Assembly (NCBI RefSeq): GCF_022770205.1
Contig: NZ_JALEIK010000038.1
Location: forward strand, 101,816 to 165,815
Direction of reading: 5' to 3'
DNA length: 64,000 nt
From: Helicobacter sp.
GTDB lineage: Bacteria; Campylobacterota; Campylobacteria; Campylobacterales; Helicobacteraceae
Of the stretch, positions 1 through 56,639 are shown piece after piece (positions within the stretch are counted from its first letter, which is position 1; each line of letters opens with the position of its first letter). The notes beneath the pieces are model-generated. The model was not told the DNA's origin. It was given only the letters and a program-made list of their open reading frames with translations, and ran no database searches. The position numbers and the translations under genes were made by a program.

Positions 1-74
1 TTTGCTGACTAAAAAACTCTTTGAAAATAGCAATGCCTATGAGATTTTAGAGAGCGAGAAATCCCAAAGCGTTT

Positions 75-575: not shown

Positions 576-597
576 GATGTGATGAAAAGGTTCAAGT

Positions 598-2328
598 GTG
601 CAGTATTTGATTGATTTTCTACAAGCAAGCAGTATTAATAAGGCAAAAATTTATCCTTTTTTGAAATGCAGTAAAGAAGAAGCACTCATTTTACGCTATT
701 TATGCACAGAGTTTTTAAAAGGTGATCACGAGGTTGTTTGTTTAGATGTTATCAATGCGCTTTTTATGCCAAAAGATGAAATAGAAGTTTTGCAATATCT
801 ACCTTATTTTAAAAATTTATTAGATACAGGTTGGATTGCGCAACACATTTTTTTAAAAACACTCAACCAAGAAGAGTTGCTCTTAGAACTCTTAAATATG
901 ACAATCTCTTTAAGTGCAAGCTTTTTAAAGTTAGTTGAGGAAGGTGGAATCCATTTAAAGCTTCCAAAAATTATTCCCTATAATGATCATTTAGAGTATT
1001 TAAAGGATCAATTTGCTTGTATTGAGCTATTACATAGCTTAAGTCCGCATAAAAAAGACAGCTACGCTTCACCCCTTTTAAAGAAGGGGATGCAAAAATA
1101 CAAACTCTTACAAGATAGGATTCAAGAGCGTTTGGAGCTAACGCGTGAGAAATTAAGTTTAGAGAGTTTGTTTAAGGAATTTAATCTAAATGCGCAAGAG
1201 AAAATCATTTTTTTAGCACTTGTTAGAGAGGAGTATTTGGGTAAGGAGAGTGAAGGCAGGGAGCTTGGTGCGCTTATAAATTTAGTTAGCACAAATGATT
1301 ATGAGAGAATGAAAAATCGCGCGCTTTTAGATGATAGAAGCCACTTAGTAGAAAAGGGGCTTGTGGATTATGATGAAATTTTAAATCCCTTTGGTGGTGT
1401 AAGTCGCACATTTTTTATTCCCGATAGTGTTTTAAAGAAAATCACACATCCGCAAACACAAGGTAAAAAAGAGCGCATTAGCTTAGAAGCACTTGTGCAA
1501 GAGCAAGAGATTTTTGAGTTTTTGCGCCCAAAAGTAACGCTTAATGATGTGGTGTTAAATCCTAGCACAAAGGCAACGCTTGAAGTGTTGCTTAAGCAGA
1601 TGGATTCTAAAGTTTTACAACGCCTAAAAGATTGGGGGATTAAGGATAAAAGGCGTGGGATTGATGCAAAAATCATTTTCTATGGAGCGGCAGGCACGGG
1701 TAAAACAATGACTGCCCTTGCGCTTGCAAAATCGCTTAAAAAGCCTGTGTTAAGCTTTGATTGCTCTAAGATTTTATCAATGTATGTGGGTGAGAGTGAA
1801 AAAAATGTGCGTAAGATTTTTGAATCCTATAAAGAGCTTTGCGCAACTTCTAAACAAAGCCCGATTTTGCTACTAGATGAAGCGGATCAATTCTTAAGCA
1901 CACGCACGACAAGTGGGAGTGGAGCGGATAAAATGCACAATCAAATGCAAAACATTTTCCTAGAACAAATTGAAAAATTTGATGGAATCTTAATTGCCAC
2001 AACAAATTTACTTGAAACGCTTGATACGGCGTTTTCTAGGCGATTTAATTATAAGATTGAATTTAAGCGTCCAAATTTTGATGAGAGAATGCGCCTGTGG
2101 GAGAAGTTACTCCCTAAAAATGCCCCTTTTGCCAAGGATTTTAATCTTAGAAAACTTGCAGAGTTTAATCTAAGTGGTGGGCAAATCGCACTTGTTGTTA
2201 AAAATACTGCTTATAGGATTGCTAGTTTTAAAAATCCTGAGTTTAGCACACAAGATTTTTTAGAGGAAATCAAGCGTGAATTAAAGTCTAATTTTGATAG
2301 TGCGCGTGAAATGGGATTCCATATTTAG
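598..2328 (+). CDS. AAA+ family ATPase
   Basis: Walker A GAAGTGKT, Walker B ILLLDEAD, SRH-like ATTN...LDTAFSRRF. Confidence 0.9.
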   Translation: MQYLIDFLQASSINKAKIYPFLKCSKEEALILRYLCTEFLKGDHEVVCLDVINALFMPKDEIEVLQYLPYFKNLLDTGWIAQHIFLKTLNQEELLLELLNMTISLSASFLKLVEEGGIHLKLPKIIPYNDHLEYLKDQFACIELLHSLSPHKKDSYASPLLKKGMQKYKLLQDRIQERLELTREKLSLESLFKEFNLNAQEKIIFLALVREEYLGKESEGRELGALINLVSTNDYERMKNRALLDDRSHLVEKGLVDYDEILNPFGGVSRTFFIPDSVLKKITHPQTQGKKERISLEALVQEQEIFEFLRPKVTLNDVVLNPSTKATLEVLLKQMDSKVLQRLKDWGIKDKRRGIDAKIIFYGAAGTGKTMTALALAKSLKKPVLSFDCSKILSMYVGESEKNVRKIFESYKELCATSKQSPILLLDEADQFLSTRTTSGSGADKMHNQMQNIFLEQIEKFDGILIATTNLLETLDTAFSRRFNYKIEFKRPNFDERMRLWEKLLPKNAPFAKDFNLRKLAEFNLSGGQIALVVKNTAYRIASFKNPEFSTQDFLEEIKRELKSNFDSAREMGFHI

Positions 2329-2348
2329 ATGCGTTTTAAGGAGAGAAA

Positions 2349-3722
2349 ATGGCTAGAGTAATAGCAAAACAAAATAAAGTTGGAATCGTAATTCCTGTGT
2401 ATAACACGCCTTTAGAGTATTTTAGGGAATGTCTTGAAGGGGCGTTAAATCAAGATTATAGAGATTTAGAGATTTTAATTGTTCACGATGGGGATTATAC
2501 GCCTTGTGTGGAAGTTTCACTAGAATATGCTAGTAGAGATCCACGCATTACTGTGATTGTAAAGCCTATTAATGAAGGTGTGTCTATTGCTAGAAATATA
2601 GGGATTGATTATTTTAGCGGGGCGTTAGAATACAGAGAAAATAAGGAAATGCAAGTGGAGTTTGGGGGGGGGGCGTTTATTGCCTTTAGTGTGAAAAACG
2701 CAAATCCTTATGCTATTGGAGTCATTTATAAGAGCAAAGCAGCATTGATTAAAGCAAAAAAGCTCACTCCTTTAAAAATTGATTACATTTATTTTTTAGA
2801 TTCTGATGATGTGTGCCATAAGGATTTAGTCAGTAGCTGTTTAAAGCACGCTAAGGGGGCAAGCCTTGTGTGGTTTAGTTTTGATAAAATCACTGAGAGT
2901 GGGGCGGAGCATTTAGGGGAGCATATTAATGATTTGGATATTTTAAGCACCTCTAGAATGATTACCCCGCAAGATTGGCTCTCTCACGGGAAGGAAGTGG
3001 GCTATGGTAGTGCAATTTTTGTGTGGCAAGTGTTTATTGATTTTAAGTTTTTAAAGGAATCTAAATTGCGCTTTTTAAACCAAGTGATGCGAGAGGATAA
3101 TCTTTTTGGAGTTTGCTTATTGTTAGAGTGCAAGAAAATGTATGCCCTTTCAGAAAAGCTTATTGATTATCGTGTGCGCACAAATGGTGAAACAAATTTT
3201 GCAATTGATACAGATAAGGTGTTTTTGCCCGGATTTTTGCGCCCGCTTTTTGAAGCCTTTGGTGGAGATTTGCTTTTAACAAAGCATTTTTATGTGGCAC
3301 TTAGTTGGTTTATCCAAAAGCTTTATTTCTTAGACTTTATCCAAAAACACACCGATAAGCAAAATCTTAATGTGATTGCTGGGGGTATGCTCAATAGATT
3401 CCAAAATGAGAGTATGAAATTTATCCATTTACGATTCCAACTTGACACGGATTATTATTTTAATATTTGTTTTAATATTTTTTTAAGCTATATCGCAGCG
3501 TTGCCAAACTATGATCCCTATTATCGCCCTTTTGATAAGCTAGCAGAATACATTATGCCAAATACAAACTCACAACAAGAAACAATCCGTCTTATGAAAG
3601 AAGTGTTAATGTGTGAGAATACAATTATTGTGGATAAAAATAAAATGATTGAAGATCTTACAGAGCGTGTTAGGGAGTTGGAATCTCAAAACACAGAATT
3701 AAAAGCGAAGCTAAAAAAGTAA
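2349..3722 (+). CDS. Glycosyltransferase family 2 with internal poly-G tract and C-terminal coiled coil
   Basis: IVIPVYN, NEGVSIARNIG, FLDSDD (DxD), EDNLF motifs; G10 at 2664-2673, in frame. Confidence 0.9.
   Translation: MARVIAKQNKVGIVIPVYNTPLEYFRECLEGALNQDYRDLEILIVHDGDYTPCVEVSLEYASRDPRITVIVKPINEGVSIARNIGIDYFSGALEYRENKEMQVEFGGGAFIAFSVKNANPYAIGVIYKSKAALIKAKKLTPLKIDYIYFLDSDDVCHKDLVSSCLKHAKGASLVWFSFDKITESGAEHLGEHINDLDILSTSRMITPQDWLSHGKEVGYGSAIFVWQVFIDFKFLKESKLRFLNQVMREDNLFGVCLLLECKKMYALSEKLIDYRVRTNGETNFAIDTDKVFLPGFLRPLFEAFGGDLLLTKHFYVALSWFIQKLYFLDFIQKHTDKQNLNVIAGGMLNRFQNESMKFIHLRFQLDTDYYFNICFNIFLSYIAALPNYDPYYRPFDKLAEYIMPNTNSQQETIRLMKEVLMCENTIIVDKNKMIEDLTERVRELESQNTELKAKLKK
2664..2673 (+). repeat. 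Poly-G10 contingency tract in GT2 (ON state)
   Basis: tttGGGGGGGGGGcg read directly. Confidence 0.9.
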
Positions 3723-3736
3723 AATAAAGGAGAAAA

Positions 3737-4684
3737 ATGGCACAGATCGGACATAATTTTGGACTTGTAGCAAATTGGATAATACAAAGTGATTTTGTTA
3801 GAGAAATGTTAGAGGATTCTAAATATTTAGAAAAGCTTGTGATTCTAACACAGGGTTTAGACAAAGAGAGTATTACGACAATTTATAGGGTGCTATCGCG
3901 CTTAAAACAAGCAGTGTGTAATGGGCAAAATATCACGCAACTTAATGCTGAGGAAATTACTATGTTAAATCGCATTCACACCGAGTTTTATCCCAATATT
4001 TTTGAAATTGCACCTAATGCATTGTATTATTATGATGGGTATTATCTTCCTATCCCCGCATTTCACGAATCTGTATTTTGGTATCGTTTAGGTTTAAGTG
4101 AGCGGGGGGGGGGGGCAATTTTTGATTTAAAAGCTTTGCAAGATAAAGACATCATTGATGTTGGGGCATACATTGGTGATAGTGCGCTTATTTTGCAAGA
4201 ATATACGAGGAAAAAAGTGTATGCCTTTGAGGCGGTAAAGTCAAATTATCAAACAATGCTACAAACAATAAAGTTGAATGCTTGCAAACGCATTGTTCCG
4301 ATTAATAAAGGCTTAGGTGCTAAAAATAGTGTGGAGAAAATCTCCACACAAGGTGCTGGCTCTAGCATTGTGCTACCTAATAATAATCTTTTTGAGGAAG
4401 TGGAGATTATTCCGCTAGATTCCTATGTGAAAGAAAAAAAGTTAAAAATTGGGTTTATCAAAGTGGATATTGAAGGCTTTGAGCAGGAGTTTTTAAAAGG
4501 CGCAAAAGAAACCATTATGAAGCAAAAACCCGCAATGTTAATTAGTCTATACCATAAATACAGCGATTTTTTTGATATAAAACCTATGATTGACTCGTGG
4601 AATCTAGGCTATAAATTTAAGGTGGTAAAACCGATTGATCATAATGTAAGCGGTGAGACGGCATTGTATTGTGAAGTGCGTTAA
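3737..4684 (+). CDS. FkbM family SAM-dependent methyltransferase with poly-G tract
   Basis: IIDVGAYIGDS, YAFE, FIKVDIEGFE, KPAMLISLYH motifs; G12 at 4104-4115, in frame. Confidence 0.9.
   Translation: MAQIGHNFGLVANWIIQSDFVREMLEDSKYLEKLVILTQGLDKESITTIYRVLSRLKQAVCNGQNITQLNAEEITMLNRIHTEFYPNIFEIAPNALYYYDGYYLPIPAFHESVFWYRLGLSERGGGAIFDLKALQDKDIIDVGAYIGDSALILQEYTRKKVYAFEAVKSNYQTMLQTIKLNACKRIVPINKGLGAKNSVEKISTQGAGSSIVLPNNNLFEEVEIIPLDSYVKEKKLKIGFIKVDIEGFEQEFLKGAKETIMKQKPAMLISLYHKYSDFFDIKPMIDSWNLGYKFKVVKPIDHNVSGETALYCEVR
4104..4115 (+). repeat. Poly-G12 contingency tract in FkbM gene (ON state)
   Basis: agcGGGGGGGGGGGGcaa read directly. Confidence 0.9.
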
Positions 4685-4768
4685 AATAGCTAAAAATTTT
4701 GTCAATTTTTATAGGATTTACCATAAAATGCGGTAGAATCTTAATTTATTTTTAAAATAGGCGGTGCG

Positions 4769-6093
4769 ATGACAAGATTTTCTAAAGTGGGATTTATATT
4801 ATCTATTGCTGGAAGTGCGATAGGACTTGGTGGAATTTGGGGATTTCCCTATTTAGTTGGACAAAATGGTGGCTTTGCCTTTGTGCTTGTGTTTGTGCTA
4901 GCATTCTTAGTCTTTGGTGTGAGTGTGTTCATTGTAGAAATGCTTTTTGGTAGAGCAAGCGGGCAAAATACATTAAGCACTTTTGAGTCCTTTGCGCCAA
5001 AGCGATTGGGATTCCTAAAATACGGCGGATTTATGATGATTTCTGGCGTGTTGATTTTTGCGTTCTATGCAGTGGTTTTAGGCTGGCTTGTGCATTATAT
5101 GTTTTTAAGTCTTTTTGGAATGCCAACAACGCTAGAAGACGCAAAAAGCCTGTGGGGCAACTTCGCATCAAGTCAAATTCTGTGGCAGATGTTGTGGCAT
5201 TTTGTCATTGTAGTGTGCTTTGTGCATACATTCTAAATCGTGGTGTAAAAGCTGGAATTGAGAAGTTAAATTTAATTTTGATGCCCTTGCTATTGCTGAT
5301 TTTTCTAGGGCTTTTAGTGTATTCTGTGATGCAAGAAGCATTTTGGGATTCCTTTAAATTTTTATTCCAACCTGATTTTAGTAAAATCACTTCTGATGTG
5401 ATTATAAAAGCAATTGGGCAAGCATTTTTTATGCTTTCTTTAGGTTGTGGAGTGATTTTAACTTATTCTAATTCTATGCCAAAACAAGGCAACTTTGTGG
5501 GTTTTGCAGTCATTGTTGCATTGCTTAACTTTTTTTGTTTGATTGCTGGGCTTGTGGTTTTTACCTTTATTTTTGGTTATGGAGCAGAGCCAACAGAAGG
5601 TCCAGGGCTTGTGTTTGTGTCCTTGCCGCTAGTTTTTGCAAATCTAGGTGTTAGCGGACAAGTGATTGCCTTTTTGTTTTTTGTGGCATTGATTTTTGCT
5701 GGGATTACTTCAGCAGTTTCTATGCTAGAGCCTTTAAATAGTTGTTTGATAGAACGCTTTAAGTTAAAAAGGCGTAATGCAAATCTTATTAGCGTGTTTT
5801 GTGCGTATTTTTTAGGTGTGATTGTGCTACTTAGCAATACAGCGATATTTTCAGCGGATTTAACCTTTTTTGGCAGGAATCTTTTTGACTGGTTTGTGTA
5901 TATCACAAGTTCTTTTATGCTTCCACTTGCTGGTGTGTTTATGTGCATTTATATGGGTTGGATTTTACCAAAAGAGCGTGTGTATGCGATGAGTGAAAGG
6001 CATTTAAAAGGAATCTATTTTGAAGTTTGGTATTTTGTGATTCGCTTTGTTGCGCCTATTGGAATCTTGGTGGCAATGGTTAGCTTGATTTAG
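4769..6093 (+). pseudogene. Sodium-dependent SNF/NSS family transporter split by a 1-nt frameshift near 5210-5218
   Basis: N-half GSAIGLGGIWGFPY and C-half GVKAGIEK...GQAFFMLSLG...EGPGLVF lie in different frames; one base restores continuity. Confidence 0.75.
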
Positions 6094-6535: not shown

Positions 6536-8318
6536 TTCCACCATCTTTTTTTGTGATTTGCACAATTGTGCTTCTAGGTGTGGAGTTTCCACCATTTGGA
6601 TAGTGACTTGGTGCTAGTCTTTCGCCGGGATGCTGAATACCAACAAACATTGTTTTATAGTCTGGTGAAAAGGCAAGTCCTGTAACTTCTGAAGCAATAG
6701 GACCAGTTAAGAAGCGTTTGATTTCTCCTGTAACTGGGTTTGCACAAAGCATTTGATTATTTCCCATCCCTTCATAATCCCCTTTGTTAGAATAACTGCC
6801 ATCTGTTTGAATCCAAAGGCGTCCAAACTTATCAAATTTCAATCCATCAGGAGAGTTAAACATATTGTCTTTTGTAATGTTGCTTGTGCCTTTGCGTAAG
6901 TCATTAGGGTATTGCGCAGGGTTTCCAGCAAGCAAGAAAATGTCCCACTTAAAATCTGCATTGGAATGATTGTTCTTGCTAGGATTCCAACGGATAATAT
7001 GCCCATACACATTTTTTTCTCTAGGGTTTGCAACACTTGATTCTTCGCGCTTTTTGTTGTTTGTTAGCGTTGCATAAATAAACTCTCCCTTAGGGTCAGC
7101 AGCAATCCACTCTGGGCGATCCATTGGTGTTGCACCAACAATGCTACCTGCAAGTCTTGCATTAATTAAGATGTCTGCTTGAGAGTGGAATCCATTTTTA
7201 GAATCTAATCCATTTTTGCCATAGCTTAATTCAATCCATTTCCCACTACCGCTTAAATCATTGCCTTGAAGTTTTGCAACATAAAGCGTTCCTTCTTCTA
7301 AAAGATTCCTATTGTTTCTAGGATTATTTTTATCAAATTTTCCTTTTGAAACAAATTTATATAAAAACTCATTTGCTTCATCATCGCCCATATAGGCAAC
7401 AACATTGCCTTCTTTGCTAATCACAATCTCTACATTTTCGTGCTTGAAGCGTCCAAGTGCTGTGCGTTTAATTGGTGTGGAGTTTGCATCGTAAGGATCA
7501 ATTTCAACAACCCAGCCAAAGCGGTTTGGTTCATTAGGATTTTTAGCAATATCAAATCTAGGATCTAGTTCCCAGCCATAATTGCTTTTTGTGCTTAGTC
7601 CGTAGCGTTTTTCGCTTGGATTAAAGTTATAGTTAGGGTTGCTACTGCCAAAATAGCTATCAAAATTTTCTTCACAGGTGAGATAAGTTCCCCAAGGAGT
7701 TTGTCCATTTGCGCAGTTATTGATTGTGCCAAGTGCAAGTTCACCTTTTTTGTCTGCTTGTGTTTGCATACTTTTGTGCCCTTTTGCAGGACCGCTAATT
7801 TGCATAGGAGTGTGTGCTGTGATTCTGCGGTTGTAGGGAGAATCTAAAACAACTTTAAAGCCATCTCCATCCCTTTTGATTTCAAAAACACTTACGCCCA
7901 TAGCGTTTTGCTCATAAGCAACTTTTTGAGAGTCTATATTTTTGCCATTATCATTAAAGATTAACTCTGGATTAATGTATTCGTTATTAACCGCTAAAAT
8001 TGCACGATTTTCGTCAATAGGAAATAAAGACATTCCATCAGTGTTATCTCCAAAAACCTTTGCAGCATTTAAAACAGAGTTTTGGTTAATGGTTTTGCTC
8101 TCATCAAAAGGCGTTGCATTGCTAAAAAGCGGATCTCCAAAGCTAATAAGAGGTTTCACTTCATAGCCTTCTGGAACGATAACTGAATCTTCAGTGCTGA
8201 TTGGAATTGCCTTAAAGCCTAGCAAATTTTGCTCTTTTGCATTCAAAGGGGATAGCCCAAAAAAGCCAACATAAGAGAGTGCAAGAGAACTTGCCTTTAA
8301 AAAACTGCGTCTTTGCAT
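6522..8318 (-). CDS. phoX: PhoX family alkaline phosphatase, Tat-exported
   Basis: Twin-arginine signal MQRRSFLK; NCANG.TPWGTYLTCEEN, GRFKHE, MDRPE, SPDGL, IQHPG. Confidence 0.92.
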   Translation of the reverse strand: MQRRSFLKASSLALSYVGFFGLSPLNAKEQNLLGFKAIPISTEDSVIVPEGYEVKPLISFGDPLFSNATPFDESKTINQNSVLNAAKVFGDNTDGMSLFPIDENRAILAVNNEYINPELIFNDNGKNIDSQKVAYEQNAMGVSVFEIKRDGDGFKVVLDSPYNRRITAHTPMQISGPAKGHKSMQTQADKKGELALGTINNCANGQTPWGTYLTCEENFDSYFGSSNPNYNFNPSEKRYGLSTKSNYGWELDPRFDIAKNPNEPNRFGWVVEIDPYDANSTPIKRTALGRFKHENVEIVISKEGNVVAYMGDDEANEFLYKFVSKGKFDKNNPRNNRNLLEEGTLYVAKLQGNDLSGSGKWIELSYGKNGLDSKNGFHSQADILINARLAGSIVGATPMDRPEWIAADPKGEFIYATLTNNKKREESSVANPREKNVYGHIIRWNPSKNNHSNADFKWDIFLLAGNPAQYPNDLRKGTSNITKDNMFNSPDGLKFDKFGRLWIQTDGSYSNKGDYEGMGNNQMLCANPVTGEIKRFLTGPIASEVTGLAFSPDYKTMFVGIQHPGERLAPSHYPNGGNSTPRSTIVQITKKDGGIIGS

Positions 8319-8555
8319 ACGGAATCCTTTTTAGTGATTTTTATTAAGGTGTAGAAATTTTAAAATAGCAATGTAAAAAGAGGGAATAAAATGTGTAAAA
8401 TTTTTGTAAAGTTTAGTTGGAATTAGCATTGTTGGATTCCGTATTTTAAGAGAGTTTGCGAAGTTTTAAAAGGTTATGGCTAATTTTGTGTTTGCTTTAT
8501 AACACTTGGAATCGGAAATGAAAGGTTAATTTACGCACCATAAAGGGCGCATAAA

Positions 8556-9827: not shown

Positions 9828-9902
9828 TCCGGATTAGCTCAGCGGTAGAGTAGGCGGCTGTTAACCGCTTGGTCGTAGGTTCGAATCCTACATCCGGAGC
9901 CA
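9828..9902 (+). tRNA. tRNA-Asn (GTT)
   Basis: TCCGGAT..AGCTCAG D-arm, anticodon loop CTGTTAA, GGTTCGAATCC T-arm, encoded CCA. Confidence 0.97.
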
Positions 9903-27130: not shown

Positions 27131-27501
27131 TGGTGGAGCTGTGGGGAATCAAACCCCAGTCCAAAATCTAAATCAACAATAACCGATTTACATGCTTATT
27201 TGGGTTTAAAAATCTTTCTTTATCTAAAAAACTCCCAAAAATTTTTAAACAAAGGCAGTCAAAATCTTAACCTTATGTTTGACAGCACAAGGCGCATCTA
27301 GCTTGAATGATGTCCTTAGAAAATCGCTAGAATCCTAACTAAGAACAGCTCCAAAAGTTAGTTAAACCTACGCAACTTTAGCGTAAGCTGGAGCGTAATT
27401 TGCATTGTTTGCGTTTATATTTAAGAGCTAGTTTTGCGACTTAGCACAAGTCGGCATGCAGTTAGAGCCATCTAAATCCTGTCGAAATTCTAATCAGCCC
27501 C
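27131..27501 (-). ncRNA. ssrA: tmRNA; tag peptide (A)ANNANYAPAYAKVA
   Basis: 5' GGGGCTGATTAGAATTTCGACAGG; 3' CAGCTCCACCA; tag ORF 27412-27368. Confidence 0.96.
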
Positions 27502-42931: not shown

Positions 42932-43383
42932 TGACACTTTCTCCAAATTTAGAAGAAAAAATTAAAGTTTTAGTGGAAAGCTTAGGCTTTGAACTCTATG
43001 ATATTTTAACCCTTAAAGAAAATGAAAACCAAATTTTGCGCATTTGCATCACAAAAAATATGGAATCCAAAAGTATAAAACTCGATGATTGCCAAGAAGT
43101 AAGCCTTGCACTCTCGCCCTTGCTTGATGTGGAAATGCCAGATTTTGAGAAGTATTATTTAGAAGTGAGTTCTCCGGGCATTGAGCGTGTTTTAAAAACC
43201 TTAGAGCATTATAAGGGCGCAATTGACGCGCTTGTAAAAGTTAAAACATTCCAAGAAATTGAAGGCAAAAAGGAATTTAAGGGCAGATTAGTAAGCGTAG
43301 ATGAAAGCGTGCTTGTGTTAGAAAGTGGGGCAAAGATTCCATTAAATGCGATAAAAAAGGCACAAACTTACTTTGAGTGGTGA
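42931..43383 (+). CDS. rimP: Ribosome maturation factor
   Basis: LDDCQEVS, YYLEVSSPGIERVL. Confidence 0.93.
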   Translation: MTLSPNLEEKIKVLVESLGFELYDILTLKENENQILRICITKNMESKSIKLDDCQEVSLALSPLLDVEMPDFEKYYLEVSSPGIERVLKTLEHYKGAIDALVKVKTFQEIEGKKEFKGRLVSVDESVLVLESGAKIPLNAIKKAQTYFEW

Positions 43384-44468
43384 TGATGCTAACACACGCT
43401 TTTTATTTGGATTTATGCTTGCAATGTGCTTGGAAGGAGCAATTAAAAACGCTTCCAAACCCAGCTGTTGCGGCTCTTGTGCTAGATAAAAATGGGATGA
43501 TTTTAAGCTTAGAATCGCATAAAGAATGTGGCAAACCCCACGCTGAAGTGCTAGCCTTGCAAAAAGCCTATGCAGCCCTAAGTGGCAATAATGCGATTCT
43601 ATCCTTGAAAGATTCTGAAGCAATCCATTCCTATCTTTTAAAAAATGCGATTCCAACTTTTAAAGACATAACACTTTATGTTACCCTAGAGCCTTGCAGT
43701 AGTAATAAGAAGGGAAAAACTCCATCGTGTGCAGCATTGTTAAAAGCCTTAAAGCCAAAATGTGTGGTCATAGGAGCGCAAGATTGTAATGAGAGTGCAA
43801 AAGGCGGTGCACAGGAACTTTTGGATTCTGGAATTATCGTGCTAAAGGCTTGGGAAGTGGAATCCTTACAGGAATGCCACCAAAAGGCAAAGGCTCTTTT
43901 GCTGCCCTTTAGAGCCTTGCAAACACAGGGTAAATTTATGCTTTTTAAATATGCAAGCAGGCTTGATGGTAGCATTGATGGGGGGCAGATTAGCACAAAG
44001 GGAGCGCAAAGTTTGATGCACGACTATCGCACAAAGGCAGATGTGTTGCTGATTTCTGGGGAGAGTGTGCGTGCGGATAATCCGCGCCTTGATACGCGCT
44101 TTGCCACTTTAGCGCAAAGGAATCCTAATGTTGCCATTCTAACGCACCAAAAAGATTTTCCAAAAACTGCGCCTTTATTTACGATTCCAAATCGCAAAGT
44201 AGAGATTTTGCATTCCCTAGAGCAGGTGGAATCCTTGCGTGGTTTTATTTTTTGTGAAGGGGGAGCTAGGTTTTTTAACGCTCTACAAAATTTTATAGAT
44301 TTAGTGCTTGTGATTTTAAATCCAAGTTTGAAAAAGGATTCCAATCTTAGAATGTCATTAGATGCAAGCTTTCACTTGCTCCATAGCGCACAAATTGCTG
44401 AAGATATTTTTCTATGGCTCGCAAAAAATAAATTTATTTTTTGGGATATAACGAAGCGTGCCAAATAG
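43377..44468 (+). CDS. ribD: Riboflavin biosynthesis deaminase/reductase
   Basis: PNPAVAA, HAE, VTLEPC...GKTPSC, DNPRL, EGG; exact start uncertain. Confidence 0.93.
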   Translation: MVMMLTHAFYLDLCLQCAWKEQLKTLPNPAVAALVLDKNGMILSLESHKECGKPHAEVLALQKAYAALSGNNAILSLKDSEAIHSYLLKNAIPTFKDITLYVTLEPCSSNKKGKTPSCAALLKALKPKCVVIGAQDCNESAKGGAQELLDSGIIVLKAWEVESLQECHQKAKALLLPFRALQTQGKFMLFKYASRLDGSIDGGQISTKGAQSLMHDYRTKADVLLISGESVRADNPRLDTRFATLAQRNPNVAILTHQKDFPKTAPLFTIPNRKVEILHSLEQVESLRGFIFCEGGARFFNALQNFIDLVLVILNPSLKKDSNLRMSLDASFHLLHSAQIAEDIFLWLAKNKFIFWDITKRAK

Positions 44469-44643
44469 AGAATCCTACAAGTGCAACGCCCGCTGTTATA
44501 TGGATTGTCTTTGCGGTTTTATTCTTTAAAAATAATGCACTTCCAGCTGTTAGTAATAAGCTTACGCTCATACCTATTTTTGCAATCTCGCGCTTTGTTT
44601 CAACAGAGGCTTTATTGGATTGAATTTCTAACTCTTTTTCCAT
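44434..44643 (-). CDS. Small two-TM protein with His pair, last gene of fez-like operon
   Basis: SD AGGAG; two hydrophobic helices; HITAGVALVGFSIWH. Confidence 0.7.
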   Translation of the reverse strand: MEKELEIQSNKASVETKREIAKIGMSVSLLLTAGSALFLKNKTAKTIHITAGVALVGFSIWHASLYPKK

Positions 44644-44658
44644 ATTTTCTCCTATTTT

Positions 44659-44763
44659 TTATTTTCTTTTAGAATATTTTTTGTATTTTAAAAATGCTTG
44701 TCTTGCCATTTGCGCTGCTAAAAATCCACTTCCAGCAGTTGCTAAAATTAGTAAGAATGGCAT
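44659..44763 (-). CDS. 34-aa membrane peptide MPFLLILATAGSGFLAAQMARQAFLKYKKYSKRK, not in ORF track
   Basis: Translated by hand; SD AAGGAG overlaps the ATPase stop (TAAGGAG); fills the gap between two operon genes. Confidence 0.7.
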   Translation of the reverse strand: MPFLLILATAGSGFLAAQMARQAFLKYKKYSKRK

Positions 44764-44776
44764 AAAACTTTACTCC

Positions 44777-46876
44777 TTATCTTATACGGATTCTTTGGAG
44801 TGCATTTAAAAGCAGTCCAATAGTTGTGCCATTGTGCATAAATGCTGTTTGGATGGGGCTTAATTTTCCAAGTGTTGCCAAAATTAAAATCATAGAATTC
44901 ACACCCACTGTAATTTTAAACCCTCTTTGTACCTTTTTAAGACACGCAAGCGCAAGCTCTCTAGCTTCTGCTACCGCTTCAATATCATCACGCAATAGCA
45001 CCACATCTGCACTTGCCTTTGCGATGTCTGCACCCTTGTGCATACCAATGCCAATGTCTGCACGGATTAACGCTGGAGCATCGTTGATGCCATCGCCTAC
45101 AAAAGCTACTTTTTTTCCCTCTTGCATAATTTGTTCTAAAATCTCTGCCTTTTGTGTGGGTAATAATTCTGCATAATAACGATTAATTCCCAACTCTTTA
45201 GCGATTTTATCTGCTTTTTGTTGTGTGTCGCCTGTTAGCATAATGATTTCCTTAATGCCACTTTTGCGCAAGCGTTCTAATGCTGTTTTTGCATTTTCTC
45301 TTAGAGAATCTTTGAGTAAAATCATACCTAAAAGCTCTTTATCATAGCCGATAAAAAGGGGCATTTCACCACTTTCTAAAATTGTTTCAATTGCTTGGTT
45401 TTGTGCCTTAAAGCTAATCCCTTCATCATCTTCTAAAAAATGTCTTGAGCCAATTATTACACTTTTGCCATTAATCTCACTTTTTACTCCGTGCGCAACA
45501 ATAAAAGTTACTTCATCGTGATGAAAATGTTTAAAATCTTTGTCTTTTGCGGCTTTTACAACTGCTTGTGCAACAGGATGAAAATAATGCTCTTCAATGC
45601 TAGCAGCAAGATTTAATACTGCATCTTTATCCCAGTCGTTGTGGAATGAATACACATCAAGCACTTTTAAATCTCCTTGTGTGAGTGTGCCTGTTTTATC
45701 AAAAATAAACACTTCACTAAGTTGTAAAGATTCTAAACTTTTTGCACCCTTGATAATGATTCCTTCTTTTCCCGCACTTGAGATTGCAGATTTAAAGGTT
45801 ACAGGCGTAGTAAGCTTTAAAGCGCAAGAATAGTCCGCCTGCAACACGCCAGCACTGCGCATTAAATCGCGTGTTAAAACATAAGAGAGTGCGGCAAGTC
45901 CCAAAGTAATAGGCACTAAGGAATCTGCCATTTTAGACGCATTGAGCTCTTGAGAGGATTTTTGCACTAAAGTCTCTTCAATGTAGCTTTTAATTCGCGC
46001 TGTTGCTGTTTCTTCTCCTACCGATTCTGCCCATACTTTGATTTTTCCTTCTTGCACAATTGTGCCAGAAAGCACCCTATCGCTATGCTTCTTTTGCACA
46101 GGAGTTGCTTCTCCTGTCATAGAGATTTGATTTACAAGTGCTTCTCCCTCAATAATATGTCCATCAACTAAAATCGTATCGCCTGCACCAATGACAACAA
46201 TATCGCTAACTTTCAACTCTTCACTTGGAATCTGTTTTAAAACACTTTTGCCTTCTTCTATGTATTCAACCCAAGCTAAACCGCTCTTTTGCTTTGCTAA
46301 CTCTTTAATTAAATCATCGCTTTTATACATTGTCATTTCTTCAATGTATTCGCCAAGTGCTAGCATAAAATTTGTAGAGTTTGCTGTTTTAAAGTCTTTT
46401 AAACACAAAGAAATTGCAACTGCCATTGCTTCTAGAGAACGGGAATTGATTCCGTGCGTAAAGGTTTCTTTTAATCCGCTAAAGAGCAAAGGAGCAGATG
46501 CAACAAGAGAGAATCCAAGTTGTGCTGTGGTGTTATTTAATAAAGGAGAGAACAATAACGCACTCCCAGCGCGCGCCACTTCTGATGAGCTTGGAATCTC
46601 ATCACGCAGTGCAAGATAACTTTCATCGTGTTTGATGGAATTTGATTCTACCGCAACGCTATCAAGGGCTTTATGGACATTTTGTTTTAGGGTTTCTAAA
46701 TCTCCACAATATTGCAAAATGATATTGTTTAAAATGGCATTAACACGCACATTACTTACATTTGGTGTTTCTTCTAAAGCCACGCGAAGTTGTATGGGGT
46801 TTACCCTGAAGCTACTTTTGCAAATGTATTTAAAACGCACCCTTTTAGCTGTTGCGTGGAGTAGAATTAATCGCAT
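44777..46876 (-). CDS. fezB: P1B-type heavy-metal ATPase, P1B-6/FezB-like
   Basis: MTGE, DYSCAL (SCA instead of CPC), DKTGTLT, HYFHP, MLTGD, GDGINDAP, HNGTT; N-terminal KRVRF. P1B ATPase is certain; the fezB symbol is inferred. Confidence 0.8.
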   Translation of the reverse strand: MRLILLHATAKRVRFKYICKSSFRVNPIQLRVALEETPNVSNVRVNAILNNIILQYCGDLETLKQNVHKALDSVAVESNSIKHDESYLALRDEIPSSSEVARAGSALLFSPLLNNTTAQLGFSLVASAPLLFSGLKETFTHGINSRSLEAMAVAISLCLKDFKTANSTNFMLALGEYIEEMTMYKSDDLIKELAKQKSGLAWVEYIEEGKSVLKQIPSEELKVSDIVVIGAGDTILVDGHIIEGEALVNQISMTGEATPVQKKHSDRVLSGTIVQEGKIKVWAESVGEETATARIKSYIEETLVQKSSQELNASKMADSLVPITLGLAALSYVLTRDLMRSAGVLQADYSCALKLTTPVTFKSAISSAGKEGIIIKGAKSLESLQLSEVFIFDKTGTLTQGDLKVLDVYSFHNDWDKDAVLNLAASIEEHYFHPVAQAVVKAAKDKDFKHFHHDEVTFIVAHGVKSEINGKSVIIGSRHFLEDDEGISFKAQNQAIETILESGEMPLFIGYDKELLGMILLKDSLRENAKTALERLRKSGIKEIIMLTGDTQQKADKIAKELGINRYYAELLPTQKAEILEQIMQEGKKVAFVGDGINDAPALIRADIGIGMHKGADIAKASADVVLLRDDIEAVAEARELALACLKKVQRGFKITVGVNSMILILATLGKLSPIQTAFMHNGTTIGLLLNALQRIRIR

Positions 46877-46884
46877 TTTCTGCC

Positions 46885-47223
46885 TTAGATTTTATTGGTA
46901 TCGTTAATTTCTGCTTTTGCATCCTCATAGCGCTCTTTTAATTCTTCAATTCCACTTTCAAAGAGACTGCTAATCTTTGCAAAGCCTTTAAAGATTGCTT
47001 TTTGTGCATTTTCATTGGTTAAAATAAAAGTTGCAGCAGTCCCTATGAGTGCACCTTTTATGAAGACTTGCTTAGAATTGTTGGCATCTAGTAAGCCCCC
47101 TAAAAAGTTTTGCGTATTGTTTTGTGTGTTATTTTGAGAATTATTTTCTCCTTGATTTTGCATACTTTGTTCTCCGTTGTTTATATTCTTGATGTAGGGA
47201 TTATTTGGGTTTGGCTGTGTCAT
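46885..47223 (-). CDS. Small GxxxG membrane protein with Q/N-rich N-terminus and C-terminal coiled coil (FezA/YtxH-like)
   Basis: KGALIGTAATF; GIEELKERYEDAKAE. Confidence 0.7.
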   Translation of the reverse strand: MTQPNPNNPYIKNINNGEQSMQNQGENNSQNNTQNNTQNFLGGLLDANNSKQVFIKGALIGTAATFILTNENAQKAIFKGFAKISSLFESGIEELKERYEDAKAEINDTNKI

Positions 47224-47224
47224 A

Positions 47225-47572
47225 TTAGTCCTTTGTTAGAAATTTTGAAGCGGTGCAACAGCTTTTATTAGCGAGTGTTCGGATTCCATACACGCTTGCT
47301 GCTCCAATAGCTACAAATGTAGTGGCTTCAATGATTCCTTGTGCAGTTGATTTGGTATTGCTCCCTAAGGCATTTGCCGCTGCTATTCCACAAGCTGTAA
47401 GGATTCCGCCTTCAACACTTGCTTTTATTGTTTTAGTGATAGCCTCTTGCTTATTAATTTCATTGCGTTTATATTTTGCATACGCACAGGCTCCACTTAA
47501 CATAAATGCGATAAGCCCCCCGCTAATTGCGTGTCCTGTAACAGAACGCGGAGTTCCTGTATTTACTACCAT
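47225..47572 (-). CDS. Small Gly/Ala-rich multi-helix membrane protein
   Basis: GHAISGG, GILTACG, GAASVYG small-residue motifs. Confidence 0.7.
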   Translation of the reverse strand: MVVNTGTPRSVTGHAISGGLIAFMLSGACAYAKYKRNEINKQEAITKTIKASVEGGILTACGIAAANALGSNTKSTAQGIIEATTFVAIGAASVYGIRTLANKSCCTASKFLTKD

Positions 47573-47856
47573 TTGTTATCCTTTATTTTTGTTGTTTTGC
47601 GCGTTATTTGTGTTTTTTGTGCTTGCGGTTCTTCTGTTTTGGATTCTGTATTGAGCGCATTTGCAAGGCTTGTCTTTGCATAGTTTAATGCATTGCTAGA
47701 AATCTCTTTGCCTTTATTAATGCTATTGCTTAAACCTTTTTGAATGTTTTCAGAAAGTTCGCTATTGCTTAATTTTTGCTTGATTTGTTCTCTTTTTGTG
47801 AATAATAGTGCAACTCCTGCACCAACTGCTAATCCTGCAACAAATGGTAATGCCAT
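47566..47856 (-). CDS. Small GxxxG N-anchored protein
   Basis: MALPFVAGLAVGAGVALL followed by a charged helix. Confidence 0.7.
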   Translation of the reverse strand: MALPFVAGLAVGAGVALLFTKREQIKQKLSNSELSENIQKGLSNSINKGKEISSNALNYAKTSLANALNTESKTEEPQAQKTQITRKTTKIKDNKW

Positions 47857-47859
47857 AAT

Positions 47860-48462
47860 TTACTCCTTATTCTTTTGATTTAAAAGTTCATTAAAAATAA
47901 TGACGCCAAAAGCACCTGCAATGACGCCACCCATTAATGAATAGTTTAATTTACCTAAAAAGCCTTCTAGCTGTTCTTGTGTAAGATTTCCCTCCTTTAG
48001 CCTTGTAACCATCTCGCCTGTTTCATTTAAAAGTTCTTTGCCATTATTGAGTATGTCCATCATATTCATCGCATTGTCTTGCGCATATTGAGAAAGTGCA
48101 TTTTGTAATGCTGGGATATGATTGTTAAAGCTTGCAGCTTGCAAACGATAAAATACATCTAAAACATCTAAATCTTGTTCATTGGTAATTAAATTATTAT
48201 ACAGCGCAATGTTTGCATTCTCATACATAAGCGCAGTTTGTAGTGCTTCTACTTTATTGTTTGGAGGCATAATTGCATTAAAGTAGGGATTGTTAGGAAT
48301 GGGGGTATTTAACTTTTGAAGTTGATAGGTCAATGCGCTGATGTGTGCAGCCTCTGCATTCTGAAGATTTACAAAAATCTCACCTAATGGGCTTGCTGAC
48401 ATATAAAAACTATACGACTTATATTCATCGTCTAATGCTAATAATAAATTCTCTGCACTCAT
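47860..48462 (-). CDS. Ferritin-like (DUF2202-type) protein with C-terminal GxxxG TM anchor
   Basis: DDEYK..SFY, AEAAH, YENAN, SFNNH; LMGGVIAGAFG; true start ATG 48462 overlaps upstream TGA. Confidence 0.8.
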   Translation of the reverse strand: MSAENLLLALDDEYKSYSFYMSASPLGEIFVNLQNAEAAHISALTYQLQKLNTPIPNNPYFNAIMPPNNKVEALQTALMYENANIALYNNLITNEQDLDVLDVFYRLQAASFNNHIPALQNALSQYAQDNAMNMMDILNNGKELLNETGEMVTRLKEGNLTQEQLEGFLGKLNYSLMGGVIAGAFGVIIFNELLNQKNKE

Positions 48463-48824
48463 ACAACCTCCCTTAAATTTTGATTGATAATCCTTGCGAT
48501 TTCTTCTAATGATTCTCCATTTATGCAATCTTCCCAAAGTTTGGGGCTTAACAAGTTGGAATCGTAATGGATTGTAAGAGAGCCAACTAAAGGATTGAAT
48601 TTAATAGAAAGAATCAAAGGAATCTTTTTTAATATTTCTAAAAGTGCCTTTGGATTAATCTTATTTTCCTGTGCAGCAGTTTTTAACTTTAAACTTGCTC
48701 TAAGACGGATTCTACCTTTTGTGTGATGCACAATTGAAAAATAATCTTTTAAAAACTGCAAATCATCAGATTTTATTTCCAAGTCTCTTAAGGTATCAAG
48801 CAATTTTGCTTTGTCGTCTCCCAT
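48459..48824 (-). CDS. HMA2-like domain protein (FezC-like), first gene of operon
   Basis: HHTKGRIRLR and IKFNPLVGSLTIHYD; start set at ATG 48824. Confidence 0.75.
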   Translation of the reverse strand: MGDDKAKLLDTLRDLEIKSDDLQFLKDYFSIVHHTKGRIRLRASLKLKTAAQENKINPKALLEILKKIPLILSIKFNPLVGSLTIHYDSNLLSPKLWEDCINGESLEEIARIINQNLREVV

Positions 48825-48992
48825 AAAAATCCACTTAAAATAAATTTGTCGCAAATTTTAGAATAAAGGTTATAAAATTTTTCTTAATAAAAAAATAATG
48901 GGATTTAATAAAAATAAAAACACCTTTATATTCAATGGATTCTAAGGGTATAAAATTCTCTAAAAATTAAAAAATAAGAATCAAAAATAAAG

Positions 48993-49835
48993 TTAATCTT
49001 GTGTGCTAAAATTAAAAATCTTAGATTCTTCCATTTTGGATTTTGTATTTTCTTCTAAAGCAAGCTCTGCTTTTTGACTATCAATATTGACTAGCCAATA
49101 AAATGTATTTGCGCCTTCAATGGAGGGTTTAACTCTGGCAATTTGATACCCTTGCTGCTCTTCTACAGATTCCACGATACCTACAAGCACGCCGGGATAA
49201 AAAATCTCATCAAAACCGCTTGTTTGAACTTGTTCTCCTACTTCAATTTTAGGATATAAGGGGATATAATCTACTACAAAGCCTTTGTTTAAGTCGTGCT
49301 TTGCAACTCCAGGGGCTTTCTTGTCCCCTATTGTTACACTATAACTGCATTTTTCGTTACCATTTAAATAGCCTAGCAAGCGACCATTTTGCATTGTGGC
49401 AATTCCTGCTGCTTTATTTTGGATAATCAATCCAAAAATTGTATTTTCTTTTTGTTGCAATGCATCTTTTTGTTCAAGCCAAACTTTTGTGTAATTATTT
49501 ATTTCCACATAGGAAATCATTCTAGTGAGTATAATTTGCATCGCACTTGGTTTGGATTCCAATGCTTGCAAAAGTGTGTCGTGTTCAATTTTTAGCGCAT
49601 CGTAAGAATATTGAAGTTTTTCCTTGTCTGCAAGGGCATTTGTCAAGTTTTTAATCTGTTGCACTTGATTAAAATAGCGTGTGATAATATTTGAAAAATT
49701 ATTGTTTAAATTTAGAATTCCAATTTTTACTGCATCACTTAAATATAAGACTTTTGAATGAAACTCTTTAGATATTTGTATGGAAATAAAAAAAGCAACT
49801 GCTAAGAACAATATCCAAAGAAAAAGTTTTTTCAA
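48993..49835 (-). CDS. mreC: Rod shape-determining protein MreC
   Basis: N-terminal TM, coiled coil, TSGFDEIFYPGVLVG; downstream of mreB. Confidence 0.9.
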   Translation of the reverse strand: MKKLFLWILFLAVAFFISIQISKEFHSKVLYLSDAVKIGILNLNNNFSNIITRYFNQVQQIKNLTNALADKEKLQYSYDALKIEHDTLLQALESKPSAMQIILTRMISYVEINNYTKVWLEQKDALQQKENTIFGLIIQNKAAGIATMQNGRLLGYLNGNEKCSYSVTIGDKKAPGVAKHDLNKGFVVDYIPLYPKIEVGEQVQTSGFDEIFYPGVLVGIVESVEEQQGYQIARVKPSIEGANTFYWLVNIDSQKAELALEENTKSKMEESKIFNFSTQD

Positions 49836-49844
49836 TGTTTGCCA

Positions 49845-50879
49845 TCACTCGTATGTAAGTTGCTGTAAGACATCAATTTCTTCTAGGGCTTTGCCTGTTC
49901 CTTTTGCCACACATAACAATGGATCATCACCTACATACACAGGAAGTTTAACAATGTCTGAAAGATACTTATCAAGTCCGCGAATTAAAGCACCACCACC
50001 TGTTAGTGCGATTCCATTCTCTACAATATCTCCTGCTAAATCTGGTGGCATTTGTTCTAGCACATCTTTGAGCGCATTTGAAATCTCTTTAAGAGTTTCT
50101 TTCATTGCTTCTCTTACATCTTCACTTGTTAGTTCAATAGAGTTTAGCAGACCGCTGACTTGATCGCGCCCTTTAACTTGCATTGAAAGTGGCTCATCAA
50201 GGCTAACTGCTGAACCAATTTGAATCTTAATTTCCTCCCCCGTGCGCTCACCAATTAATAAGCTATATTTTCTGCGCACATAATCCACAACCGCCATATC
50301 TAGTTTATCTCCAGCAGTGCGCAGAGATTTTGAAATCACAAGTCCCCCAAGAGAAATCACACCAATTTCTGTCGTCCCTCCGCCAATGTCTACTACTAAA
50401 CTTCCTTTGGGTTCTTTTACGGGGAGTCCTGCCCCAATTGCTGCTGCCATTGGCTCTTCAATTAAAAAGACTTCTCTAGCTCCTGCGCTAATTGCAGATT
50501 CTCTAACAGCCTTACGCTCCACTCCTGTTAGTCCATAAGGCACGCATACGATAATCCTAGGACGTATTAGTGCTTTTCTGCGATGTGCTTTTTCAATAAA
50601 ATGGCGAATCATTTTTTCTGTCATATCAAAATCTGCAATCACCCCATCTTTCATAGGGCGCACAGCTGTAATGCTTCCGGGTGTTTTGCCTACCATTTCT
50701 TTGGCTTCTTGTCCAACAGCTAAAATTTTGTTTTTTCCGTAACGATCATTTTGCACAGCCACAACAGAAGGTTCATTAATGATTACCCCCTGTCCTTTGA
50801 CTAGGACAATCGTATTTGCTGTCCCAAGATCAATGGAGATATCGTGTGAAAACCAACCAATTATTTTATCTATTAACAT
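49845..50879 (-). CDS. mreB: Actin-like rod shape protein
   Basis: IDLGTANT, RPMKDGVIADF, VDIGGGTTE, LTGGGAL; start set at ATG 50879. Confidence 0.98.
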   Translation of the reverse strand: MLIDKIIGWFSHDISIDLGTANTIVLVKGQGVIINEPSVVAVQNDRYGKNKILAVGQEAKEMVGKTPGSITAVRPMKDGVIADFDMTEKMIRHFIEKAHRRKALIRPRIIVCVPYGLTGVERKAVRESAISAGAREVFLIEEPMAAAIGAGLPVKEPKGSLVVDIGGGTTEIGVISLGGLVISKSLRTAGDKLDMAVVDYVRRKYSLLIGERTGEEIKIQIGSAVSLDEPLSMQVKGRDQVSGLLNSIELTSEDVREAMKETLKEISNALKDVLEQMPPDLAGDIVENGIALTGGGALIRGLDKYLSDIVKLPVYVGDDPLLCVAKGTGKALEEIDVLQQLTYE

Positions 50880-56465: not shown

Positions 56466-56543
56466 GCCAAGGTAGCTCAGCTGGTTTAGAGCGCTGGTCT
56501 CATAAGCCGGAGGTCGGGGGTTCGAGTCCCCCCTTTGGTACCA
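56466..56543 (+). tRNA. tRNA-Met/Ile2 (CAT anticodon, non-initiator)
   Basis: GCCAAGG/CTTTGGT acceptor, loop CTCATAA, GGGGG-TTCGAGT-CCCCC, CCA. Confidence 0.92.
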
Positions 56544-56562
56544 CTTTAAATTTTCTATTAAT

Positions 56563-56639
56563 GCGCTCATAGCTCAGCTGGATAGAGCAACGGCCTTCTA
56601 AGCCGTAGGTCAGAGGTTCGAATCCTCTTGGGCGTACCA
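56563..56639 (+). tRNA. tRNA-Arg (TCT)
   Basis: GCGCTCA acceptor, loop CTTCTAA, GGTTCGAATCC, CCA. Confidence 0.96.

Follow-up and report, generated by a model that had tools for sequence, protein, structure and literature searches.

The stretch of DNA examined here (64,000 nucleotides (nt) of contig NZ_JALEIK010000038.1 of the Helicobacter sp. assembly GCF_022770205.1, positions 101,816 to 165,815; hereafter the window) carries on its minus strand, at 44434–48824, eight closely packed genes, g1 to g8, one of which encodes a P-type ATPase of the FezB kind. By analogy with characterised systems, this locus is probably an intact and expressed ferrosome (fez) operon of the kind seen in Campylobacterota, and its products would be expected to form iron granules. 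To our knowledge, ferrosomes are the only lipid-bounded iron stores in bacteria. Judged from its sequence, the operon encodes all the partner classes tabulated for this cluster type and, in addition, a conserved transmembrane (TM) peptide of 34 amino acids (aa). An earlier note on this DNA had proposed a ferrosome-like iron-storage operon, an interpretation that is now strengthened: every sequence-level hallmark of a fez cluster was found, and g1, g2, g3, g5 and g8 are orthologous to tabulated Fez groups.

The eight-gene locus

The listing of open reading frames (ORFs) for the window gives eight consecutive minus-strand ORFs with gaps of 15 nt or less or overlaps, the junctions from g1 to g8 measuring −4 (ATGA), +3, −7, +1, +8, +13 and +15 nt. 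Starts were picked from the position of the ATG and the ribosome-binding site, and a purine-rich ribosome-binding site precedes each of the eight. Minus-strand coding of the region agrees with the GC and AT skew. The eight ORFs and the junctions described in the earlier note were all recovered, position 48824 being the ATG of g1.

48459–48824, minus strand: g1, HMA_2 protein, 121 aa, ATG at 48824
47860–48462, minus strand: g2, ferritin-like protein, 200 aa, ATG with a strong AAGGGAGG Shine–Dalgarno sequence, its ATGA overlapping the g1 stop
47566–47856, minus strand: g3, GxxxG protein, 96 aa
47225–47572, minus strand: g4, MamC-family protein, 115 aa
46885–47223, minus strand: g5, GxxxG protein, 112 aa
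44777–46876, minus strand: g6, predicted FezB-type P1B-6 ATPase, 699 aa
44659–44763, minus strand: g7, single-TM peptide, 34 aa
44434–44643, minus strand: g8, two-TM histidine protein, 69 aa

The FezB-type ATPase

The definitions of fez clusters used here were taken from a 2020 preprint and later reviews. FezB proteins form the P1B-6 group and are recognized by D[Y/F]SCA, HNxxT and an arginine-rich N-terminus (Grant & Komeili, bioRxiv 10.1101/2020.01.10.902569). In g6, DYSCALK occupies residues 348–354 of the fourth TM helix (TM4), about 45 residues before DKTGT; HNGTT, at 681–685 in the last TM helix, is the same as in the FezB proteins of Shewanella putrefaciens, Rhodopseudomonas palustris and Wolinella; and the N-terminal stretch LLHATAKRVRFKY at residues 5–17 includes KRVRF, an RxR motif. 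The protein lacks a classical CxxC HMA domain and has an arginine-rich HMA_2-like N-terminus in its place, and precomputed HMA_2 matches lie in the N-terminus of some close homologues. With TGE, DKTGT, MLTGD and GDGIND all intact, g6 is, as its motifs indicate, a FezB/P1B-6 ATPase with a complete catalytic apparatus. H. rodentium BS85_01621, which the same preprint places in the FezB clade, shares 83% identity with it, and the best 120 proteins of a homologue search all belong to Helicobacter or Campylobacter. By hydropathy alone, two or three segments precede the A domain and four follow it, which is compatible with six TM helices.

A conventional role in metal efflux or detoxification, in which an ATPase of the cytoplasmic membrane would rid the cell interior of excess Fe(II), Zn, Cd or Co by export into the periplasm, with the small proteins as chaperones or stabilisers and no organelle being made, agrees with the names given to the protein in the sources, 'P-type Zn(2+) transporter' or 'heavy metal translocating ATPase'. 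Automated annotation does yield a cation ATPase plus hypothetical proteins, as had been predicted. Also in keeping with efflux, g6 passes the generic heavy-metal model TIGR01525 (470 bits) and the broad cadmium-family subfamily model TIGR01512 (349.6 bits versus a cutoff of 313.5), and granules have not been demonstrated in Campylobacterota. The score nevertheless falls under the NCBIfam Cu-subfamily cutoff (326 versus 397 bits) and far under the equivalog cutoffs for CopA (286 versus 1316 bits) and ZntA (238–275 versus 1005–1240 bits). Canonical P1B exporters (CopA, ZntA/CadA and the CoaT/PfeT type) share the P-type core and catalytic motifs with g6, but where they have CPC, CPx or SPC in TM4, it has SCA, accompanied by HNxxT; an identity as a CopA/ZntA-type exporter was rejected on the equivalog scores and the TM4 site. 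The second, co-resident ATPase of relatives, in contrast, has SCPC. Efflux also sits poorly with the six or seven dedicated small membrane proteins conserved alongside the ATPase, a ferritin-like and a MamC-family protein among them, and with the finding that homologous operons elsewhere are necessary and sufficient for granules. We regard plain efflux as unlikely. In the Protein Data Bank (PDB), g6 scores 186–249 bits, with the structures of CopA, CoaT and ZntA about equally distant, and the search with g6 found no P1B-6 structure among those solved.

Partner proteins

The first gene product, g1, matches Pfam HMA_2 above threshold (41.3 bits versus a cutoff of 30, E 1.9e-10), has no TM segment and is hence classed as soluble. 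Its arginine-rich motif, HHTKGRIRLR, is identical in H. rodentium BS85DRAFT_01616, which the tables place in Fez group 3-1 together with RPA2337 and Sputcn32_3197, and g1 corresponds to this group, the 'chaperone-like' FezD type.

For g2, a profile of 20 sequences matches MJ0754/DUF2202 (E 6.8e-6), the AlphaFold2 model is a four-helix bundle with a pLDDT above 90 over residues 1–130, and Foldseek returns MJ0754 as the best match (E 8e-4), followed by bacterioferritins. Residues E13, E37, H40, E81 and H115 are kept across 20 homologues, and the C-terminal hydrophobic helix carries GVIAG, itself a GxxxG motif. As modelled, g2 is a membrane-anchored, DUF2202-type ferritin-like protein with both the bundle and its putative metal-ligand residues. 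Its orthologue BS85DRAFT_01617 and Wolinella WS1575 are listed as Fez group 5.

Two of the small membrane proteins have strict GxxxG motifs. The N-terminal TM helix of g3 contains GLAVG (PFVAGLAVGAGVAL) and is followed by a polar, lysine-rich tail; the motif matches those of BS85DRAFT_01618 and WS1574, which the tables assign to Fez group 2-6. The other protein, g5, consists of an Asn/Gln-rich N-terminus, a central TM helix with GALIG (FIKGALIGTAATF) and a C-terminal amphipathic helix, and its motif matches WS1572 and BS85DRAFT_01620 of Fez group 2-1, a group that, in the same tables, also includes RPA2334 and Sputcn32_3194 from validated operons. The small hydrophobic GxxxG protein expected beside fezB is therefore represented by g5, g3 and the C-terminus of g2 (groups 2-1, 2-6 and 5). 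The N-terminal 50 residues of g5 are of low complexity and rich in Asn, Gln and Thr, varying widely among species in length and sequence (orthologues of 103–138 aa), in contrast to the conserved TM and C-terminal amphipathic helices. Matches of g3 and g5 to YtxH-, GvpT- and DUF6110-type proteins were weak and sub-threshold, and these identities were not used.

The last gene product, g8, has two TM helices, the second bearing the conserved His48 and His62, and the motif HIxxGxALxGFSxWHxSLY is conserved among its orthologues. It scores 18 bits against Pfam DUF4405 (cutoff 26.7). Orthologues BS85DRAFT_01622 and WS1569 are tabulated as group 3-3, and g8 corresponds to this group as a DUF4405-like protein equivalent to the membrane half of FezC. 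The accessory proteins found in many, not all, fez clusters (arginine-rich HMA, DUF4405 and DUF2202 proteins) thus have counterparts in g1, g8 and g2.

The earlier note had read the genes in order as an HMA2-like protein, a ferritin-like protein with a TM anchor, three small GxxxG/Gly-Ala membrane proteins, a P1B ATPase with an SCA site, a 34-aa peptide and a two-TM histidine protein. The HMA_2 match, the DUF2202 profile match with its modelled bundle and hydrophobic C-terminal helix, the DYSCA at 348, the TM helix of g7 and the two TM helices of g8 with their histidines all bear this out. The description of the three small proteins stands for g3 and g5 and has to be amended for g4, which is Gly/Ala-rich without a strict GxxxG and belongs to the MamC family. 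The comparison of the neighbours with Fez proteins that had been called for did reveal similarity, with 1:1 orthologues in H. rodentium.

Comparison with known fez clusters

The H. rodentium ATCC 700285 locus (L022) was compared ORF by ORF with the Fez group tables, in which absence is weaker evidence than presence. Window genes and H. rodentium genes are 1:1 orthologues with 50–83% identity. Genes 01616, 01617, 01618, 01620 and 01622 have lengths and motifs exactly as given in the accessible tables, where 01619 is not listed.

H. rodentium 01616, 116 aa, group 3-1: orthologue of g1
H. rodentium 01617, 208 aa, group 5: orthologue of g2
H. rodentium 01618, 111 aa, group 2-6: orthologue of g3
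H. rodentium 01619, 118 aa, not listed in the accessible tables: orthologue of g4
H. rodentium 01620, 103 aa, group 2-1: orthologue of g5
H. rodentium 01621, 701 aa, FezB (1-1): orthologue of g6
H. rodentium uncalled ORF, 40 aa, not listed in the accessible tables: orthologue of g7
H. rodentium 01622, 87 aa, group 3-3: orthologue of g8

The clusters of Wolinella succinogenes (WS1569–WS1576) and H. rodentium (BS85DRAFT_01616–01622) follow the same order as the window, namely 3-1, 5, 2-6, 4-3, 2-1, FezB and 3-3, and their motif strings are identical or nearly so to those of the window; both are predicted clusters, known as genes only. A query with the ATPase retrieved 24 loci in Helicobacteraceae genomes, nearly all with the eight-gene order, and DYSCALK and HNGTT are present in every complete ATPase of the Helicobacteraceae loci. 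The order is shared by about 20 Helicobacteraceae species, Campylobacter devanensis and Wolinella, with ATPase identity within the Helicobacteraceae down to 63%, and since it recurs in so many Helicobacteraceae species, the arrangement is not due to chance. In four distant relatives (L025–L028), the core keeps the order HMA_2, ferritin-like, GxxxG, MamC, N/Q-rich GxxxG and FezB; g6 is 53–55% identical to the FezB-type proteins of L026 and L027 and 30% identical to the second ATPase there.

The closest known systems include, among those that have been characterised, the validated six-gene fez operons of S. putrefaciens CN-32 (Sputcn32_3193–3198) and R. palustris CGA009 (RPA2333–2338), which are necessary for granules, the Shewanella operon also being sufficient in Escherichia coli. 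They share groups 1-1, 2-1 and 3-1 with the window and, in the same relative order, a DYSCALK/HNGTT FezB, a 2-1 protein beside fezB, a group 4 protein, a second GxxxG protein and a 3-1 HMA protein. The subgroups differ (4-2 and 2-5 versus 4-3 and 2-6 in the window). Their FezC (group 3-2) is an HMA domain fused to two TM helices, whereas the window has the membrane half alone, as a separate DUF4405-like gene, and they have neither the ferritin-like gene nor a reported small peptide, both of which the window possesses. Their operons are, moreover, anaerobically induced and found in free-living proteobacteria. The fezABC cluster of Desulfovibrio magneticus and the fezA and fezB genes of Clostridioides difficile have in common with the window the core of a P1B-6 FezB and a GxxxG membrane protein, but these clusters are much smaller and lack any ferritin-like or DUF4405 partner, and the FezB motifs of D. 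magneticus are slightly different (DFSCAIK and HNLAT). In C. difficile, Fur represses the fez genes, which play a part in colonising the gut, and the mineral is ferrous phosphate.

A MamC-family protein in the fez core

The g4 product is Gly/Ala-rich, and its AlphaFold2 model (pLDDT 85) has three helices. A precomputed Pfam label, PF26373:MamC, is attached to g4 itself and to all but one of 80 relatives. The NCBIfam MamC model (NF038051) matches 22 of the 35 family members, collinearly over nearly the full length and with a best E of 1.4e-9; g4 alone gives E 0.009. With family scores of 16–38 bits, far under the 100-bit equivalog cutoff, g4 is, by profile comparison, a member of the MamC family at the level of homology and not a MamC equivalent. 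The family is small, with 43 representative clusters among 1.84 billion representatives, and a PDB profile search with it gave no meaningful match. The H. rodentium orthologue 01619 is not assigned in the accessible Fez tables, and g4 is placed in group 4-3 by its position, via Wolinella WS1573 in those tables. Every Campylobacterota fez cluster examined has a protein of this family in its core; where PF26373 labels and NF038051 matches locate it, the coordinates are as follows.

Window, 47225–47572, minus strand: group 4-3/MamC-family protein (g4)
L025 and L026, 6001–6351: group 4-3/MamC-family protein
L027 and L028, 6001–6390: group 4-3/MamC-family protein
L029, 4340–4699: group 4-3/MamC-family protein

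MamC is a small helical membrane protein of the magnetosome, an organelle holding an iron mineral, and g4 is likewise a small helical membrane protein, predicted to belong to such an organelle. MamC is usually described with two helices, and the three-helix model of g4 differs in this respect; unlike MamC hosts, this host is not magnetotactic and has no other mam genes nearby. A link between MamC and fez clusters was stated in no paper found in the searchable literature. The family membership hints at an origin shared with magnetosome proteins, and it is possible, though we hold it only tentatively, that g4 is a true homologue of MamC acting on the iron mineral at the ferrosome membrane or in its lumen. 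If so, ferrosomes and magnetosomes would share an ancestral organelle protein.

A small peptide after fezB

The short gene g7 encodes a single TM helix with a Lys/Arg-rich tail. After fezB, 17 of 20 Helicobacteraceae loci carry an ORF of this design, 33–45 aa long, and so does C. devanensis, whose record, the one checked for gene calls, leaves it unannotated. Codon differences are in favour of synonymous changes (synonymous to nonsynonymous 7:3, 9:4 and 12:3), and g7 is, on this pattern of substitution and conservation, a real conserved gene under purifying selection. Peptides of the g7 type (34–40 aa) are not listed in the accessible part of the published Fez tables. Their genes lie between fezB and the DUF4405-like gene.

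Window, 44659–44763, minus strand: g7-type peptide gene
L029, 7109–7228: g7-type peptide gene
L001–L017 and L022: small ORFs after fezB

In three loci from Helicobacter metagenome-assembled genomes (L018, L019 and L020), neither the small peptide nor the DUF4405-like gene is present after fezB; an unrelated conserved ORF of 70 aa (MTIVNKDSQKVLVEDVK...) stands there instead, at about 8159–8380.

Upstream region and regulation

The region upstream of g1 is an intergenic segment of 168 nt, in which one promoter-proximal block stands out in the alignment with four close relatives.

48855–48900, minus strand: CATTATTTTTTTATTAAGAAAAATTTTATAACCTTTATTCTAAAAT, near-invariant promoter-proximal block, the rest of the intergenic segment drifting

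The block ends in a −10-like TAAAAT (48855–48860), which precedes the g1 ATG by about 30 nt, and is a candidate promoter and operator. A scan for sigma-70 promoters and terminators was uninformative, because the counts equalled the shuffled expectation. Fur boxes were sought in the 260 nt upstream of g1, in the window and in 21 related loci, with the H. pylori consensus TAATAATnATTATTA, the E. coli 19-mer and the 7-1-7 form; in some relatives, those of the H. ganmani group, a site beside the −10 element departs from the consensus at 2 positions. In the distant relatives L025–L028, the fez core lies directly downstream of a Fur-family gene and the second ATPase (SCPC, HIGHT). There, the Fur-family gene overlaps the start of that second P-type ATPase (about 1950–4700), which is probably FezH-like.

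The core in L025 and L026 is flanked by NicO, CDF, CsoR-like and MntP genes, and the region accordingly looks like a metal-homeostasis island. Such a setting, with NicO, cation-efflux (CDF) and MntP genes at hand, is what might be seen if the Campylobacterota clusters encoded a ferrosome-like compartment storing Mn, Co, Ni or Zn instead of iron; the metal specificity of P1B-6 ATPases is unproven, and a 2026 review raises as a question 'ferrosome-like structures that sequester other metals'. The DYSCALK and HNGTT motifs are, however, those of the S. putrefaciens and R. palustris FezB proteins, whose granules contain iron, a ferritin-like partner is encoded and a Fur-family gene adjoins related clusters. 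Storage of another metal is, in our estimation, improbable.

Source and expression

At the ATPase, the closest genomes are an uncultured Helicobacter metagenome-assembled genome (94% identity) and H. turcicus and Helicobacter sp. MIT 11-5569 (92%), and pig-gut metagenomes hold up to 96% of the sampled words of the region; the source is a pig-gut Helicobacter. One metagenome run, X1, has a contig covering g2 with a C>T variant at 48222. As X1 is otherwise at least 99% identical to the window, the same strain or species is present in that gut sample.

Three pig-gut metatranscriptomes each contain one contig with at least 99% identity on g4. Contigs of at least 99% identity span the g4/g5 and g5/fezB junctions, the latter in one metatranscriptome. 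These contigs suggest that the operon is transcribed in vivo and that g4 to g6 are co-transcribed, so that a complete fez operon is probably expressed in a gut Helicobacter. A reading of the cluster as a defunct relic in this species, for which the lack of direct functional evidence for the strain could be adduced, is highly improbable in view of the eight intact ORFs with ribosome-binding sites, the complete catalytic motifs, the purifying selection acting even on the 34-aa peptide and the transcript fragments in three metatranscriptomes.

Proposed function

The mechanism envisaged is drawn from the systems of D. magneticus, S. putrefaciens, R. palustris and C. difficile. The eight genes would be co-transcribed from a promoter just upstream of g1, and the GxxxG, MamC-like and peptide proteins would gather in the cytoplasmic membrane and help to shape a vesicle. 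FezB, using ATP, would pump cytoplasmic Fe(II) into the vesicle lumen, where it would precipitate with phosphate to give an amorphous ferrous phosphate granule. The HMA_2 protein may dock on FezB or feed it, an RxR motif being present in both, and the ferritin-like domain may handle iron on its way in or out; this domain is probably on the cytoplasmic face, because the protein is tail-anchored and lacks a signal peptide. Iron stored in this way would serve this gut Helicobacter as a buffer against host iron withholding at low oxygen.

Several observations weigh against this picture. No convincing Fur box was found upstream of g1, the best match having 4/15 mismatches and being unremarkable because the DNA is about 31% GC, and no fur gene adjoins the operon. 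The metatranscriptome contigs are assembled, may include DNA carry-over and cover just about 10% of the operon. Single-sequence Pfam scores are sub-threshold for DUF2202 (g2) and for DUF4405 (g8). Helicobacter is microaerophilic, and ferrosome formation in S. putrefaciens and R. palustris is confined to anaerobic conditions. The searchable literature yielded no report of a ferrosome for any member of the Campylobacterota, and the literature searched gave no biochemical demonstration of the P1B-6 substrate. Even so, plain efflux, storage of another metal and a dead cluster are less likely than a fez operon.

Neighbouring features of the window

The flanks consist of housekeeping genes, with mreC, mreB and clpX upstream of the operon on the same strand and infB, rbfA, rimP and ribD converging on its 3′ end. 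The 3′ end of g8 shares 35 nt with the ribD ORF (43377–44468, plus strand), and the repeat search found a palindrome at this overlap.

44419–44446, no strand assigned: AT-rich palindrome at the convergent g8/ribD overlap, an inverted repeat with 14-nt arms, 93% complementary, without spacer

The palindrome may act as a bidirectional terminator; besides it, the repeat search gave just short AT-rich chance matches. A search of positions 43000–50000 against Rfam, with E up to 1, gave no match, and ten other ORFs of 155–189 aa scattered over the window, checked for ferritin, Fur and Dps, contained none of these. Elsewhere, the window has a tmRNA gene (27131–27501, minus strand) with the tag ANNANYAPAYAKVA, and genes for tRNA-Asn, tRNA-Met and tRNA-Arg (9828–9902 and 56466–56639). 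Together with NucT-like and HP1233-family proteins, these RNA genes are consistent with a Helicobacter chromosome.

Implications

FezB homologues had been tabulated in 2020 for H. winghamensis, H. rodentium, H. macacae, H. pullorum and Wolinella, as well as for Campylobacter hominis, C. curvus, C. gracilis, C. showae, Arcobacter and Sulfurospirillum (bioRxiv 10.1101/2020.01.10.902569). The statement in the earlier note that no characterised ferrosome is known in Helicobacter or Campylobacter fits the searchable literature, but the novelty it implied was overstated, fez clusters having been catalogued there in 2020. Because the cluster was tabulated then, its presence in Helicobacter is not itself a discovery, and the novelty of the present finding is modest.

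In C. difficile, ferrosomes help the pathogen to resist host iron withholding. The eight-gene design described here runs through enterohepatic Helicobacter, several Campylobacter and Wolinella, among which are zoonotic pathogens and genetically tractable species, and it offers a ready test system for asking if ferrosomes are formed in microaerophiles and which roles the accessory proteins have. If the kinship of g4 with MamC is genuine, then, with the 34-aa peptide added, enterohepatic Helicobacter, including the zoonotic H. pullorum, would build ferrosomes with a partly magnetosome-like kit and would use them in gut colonisation.

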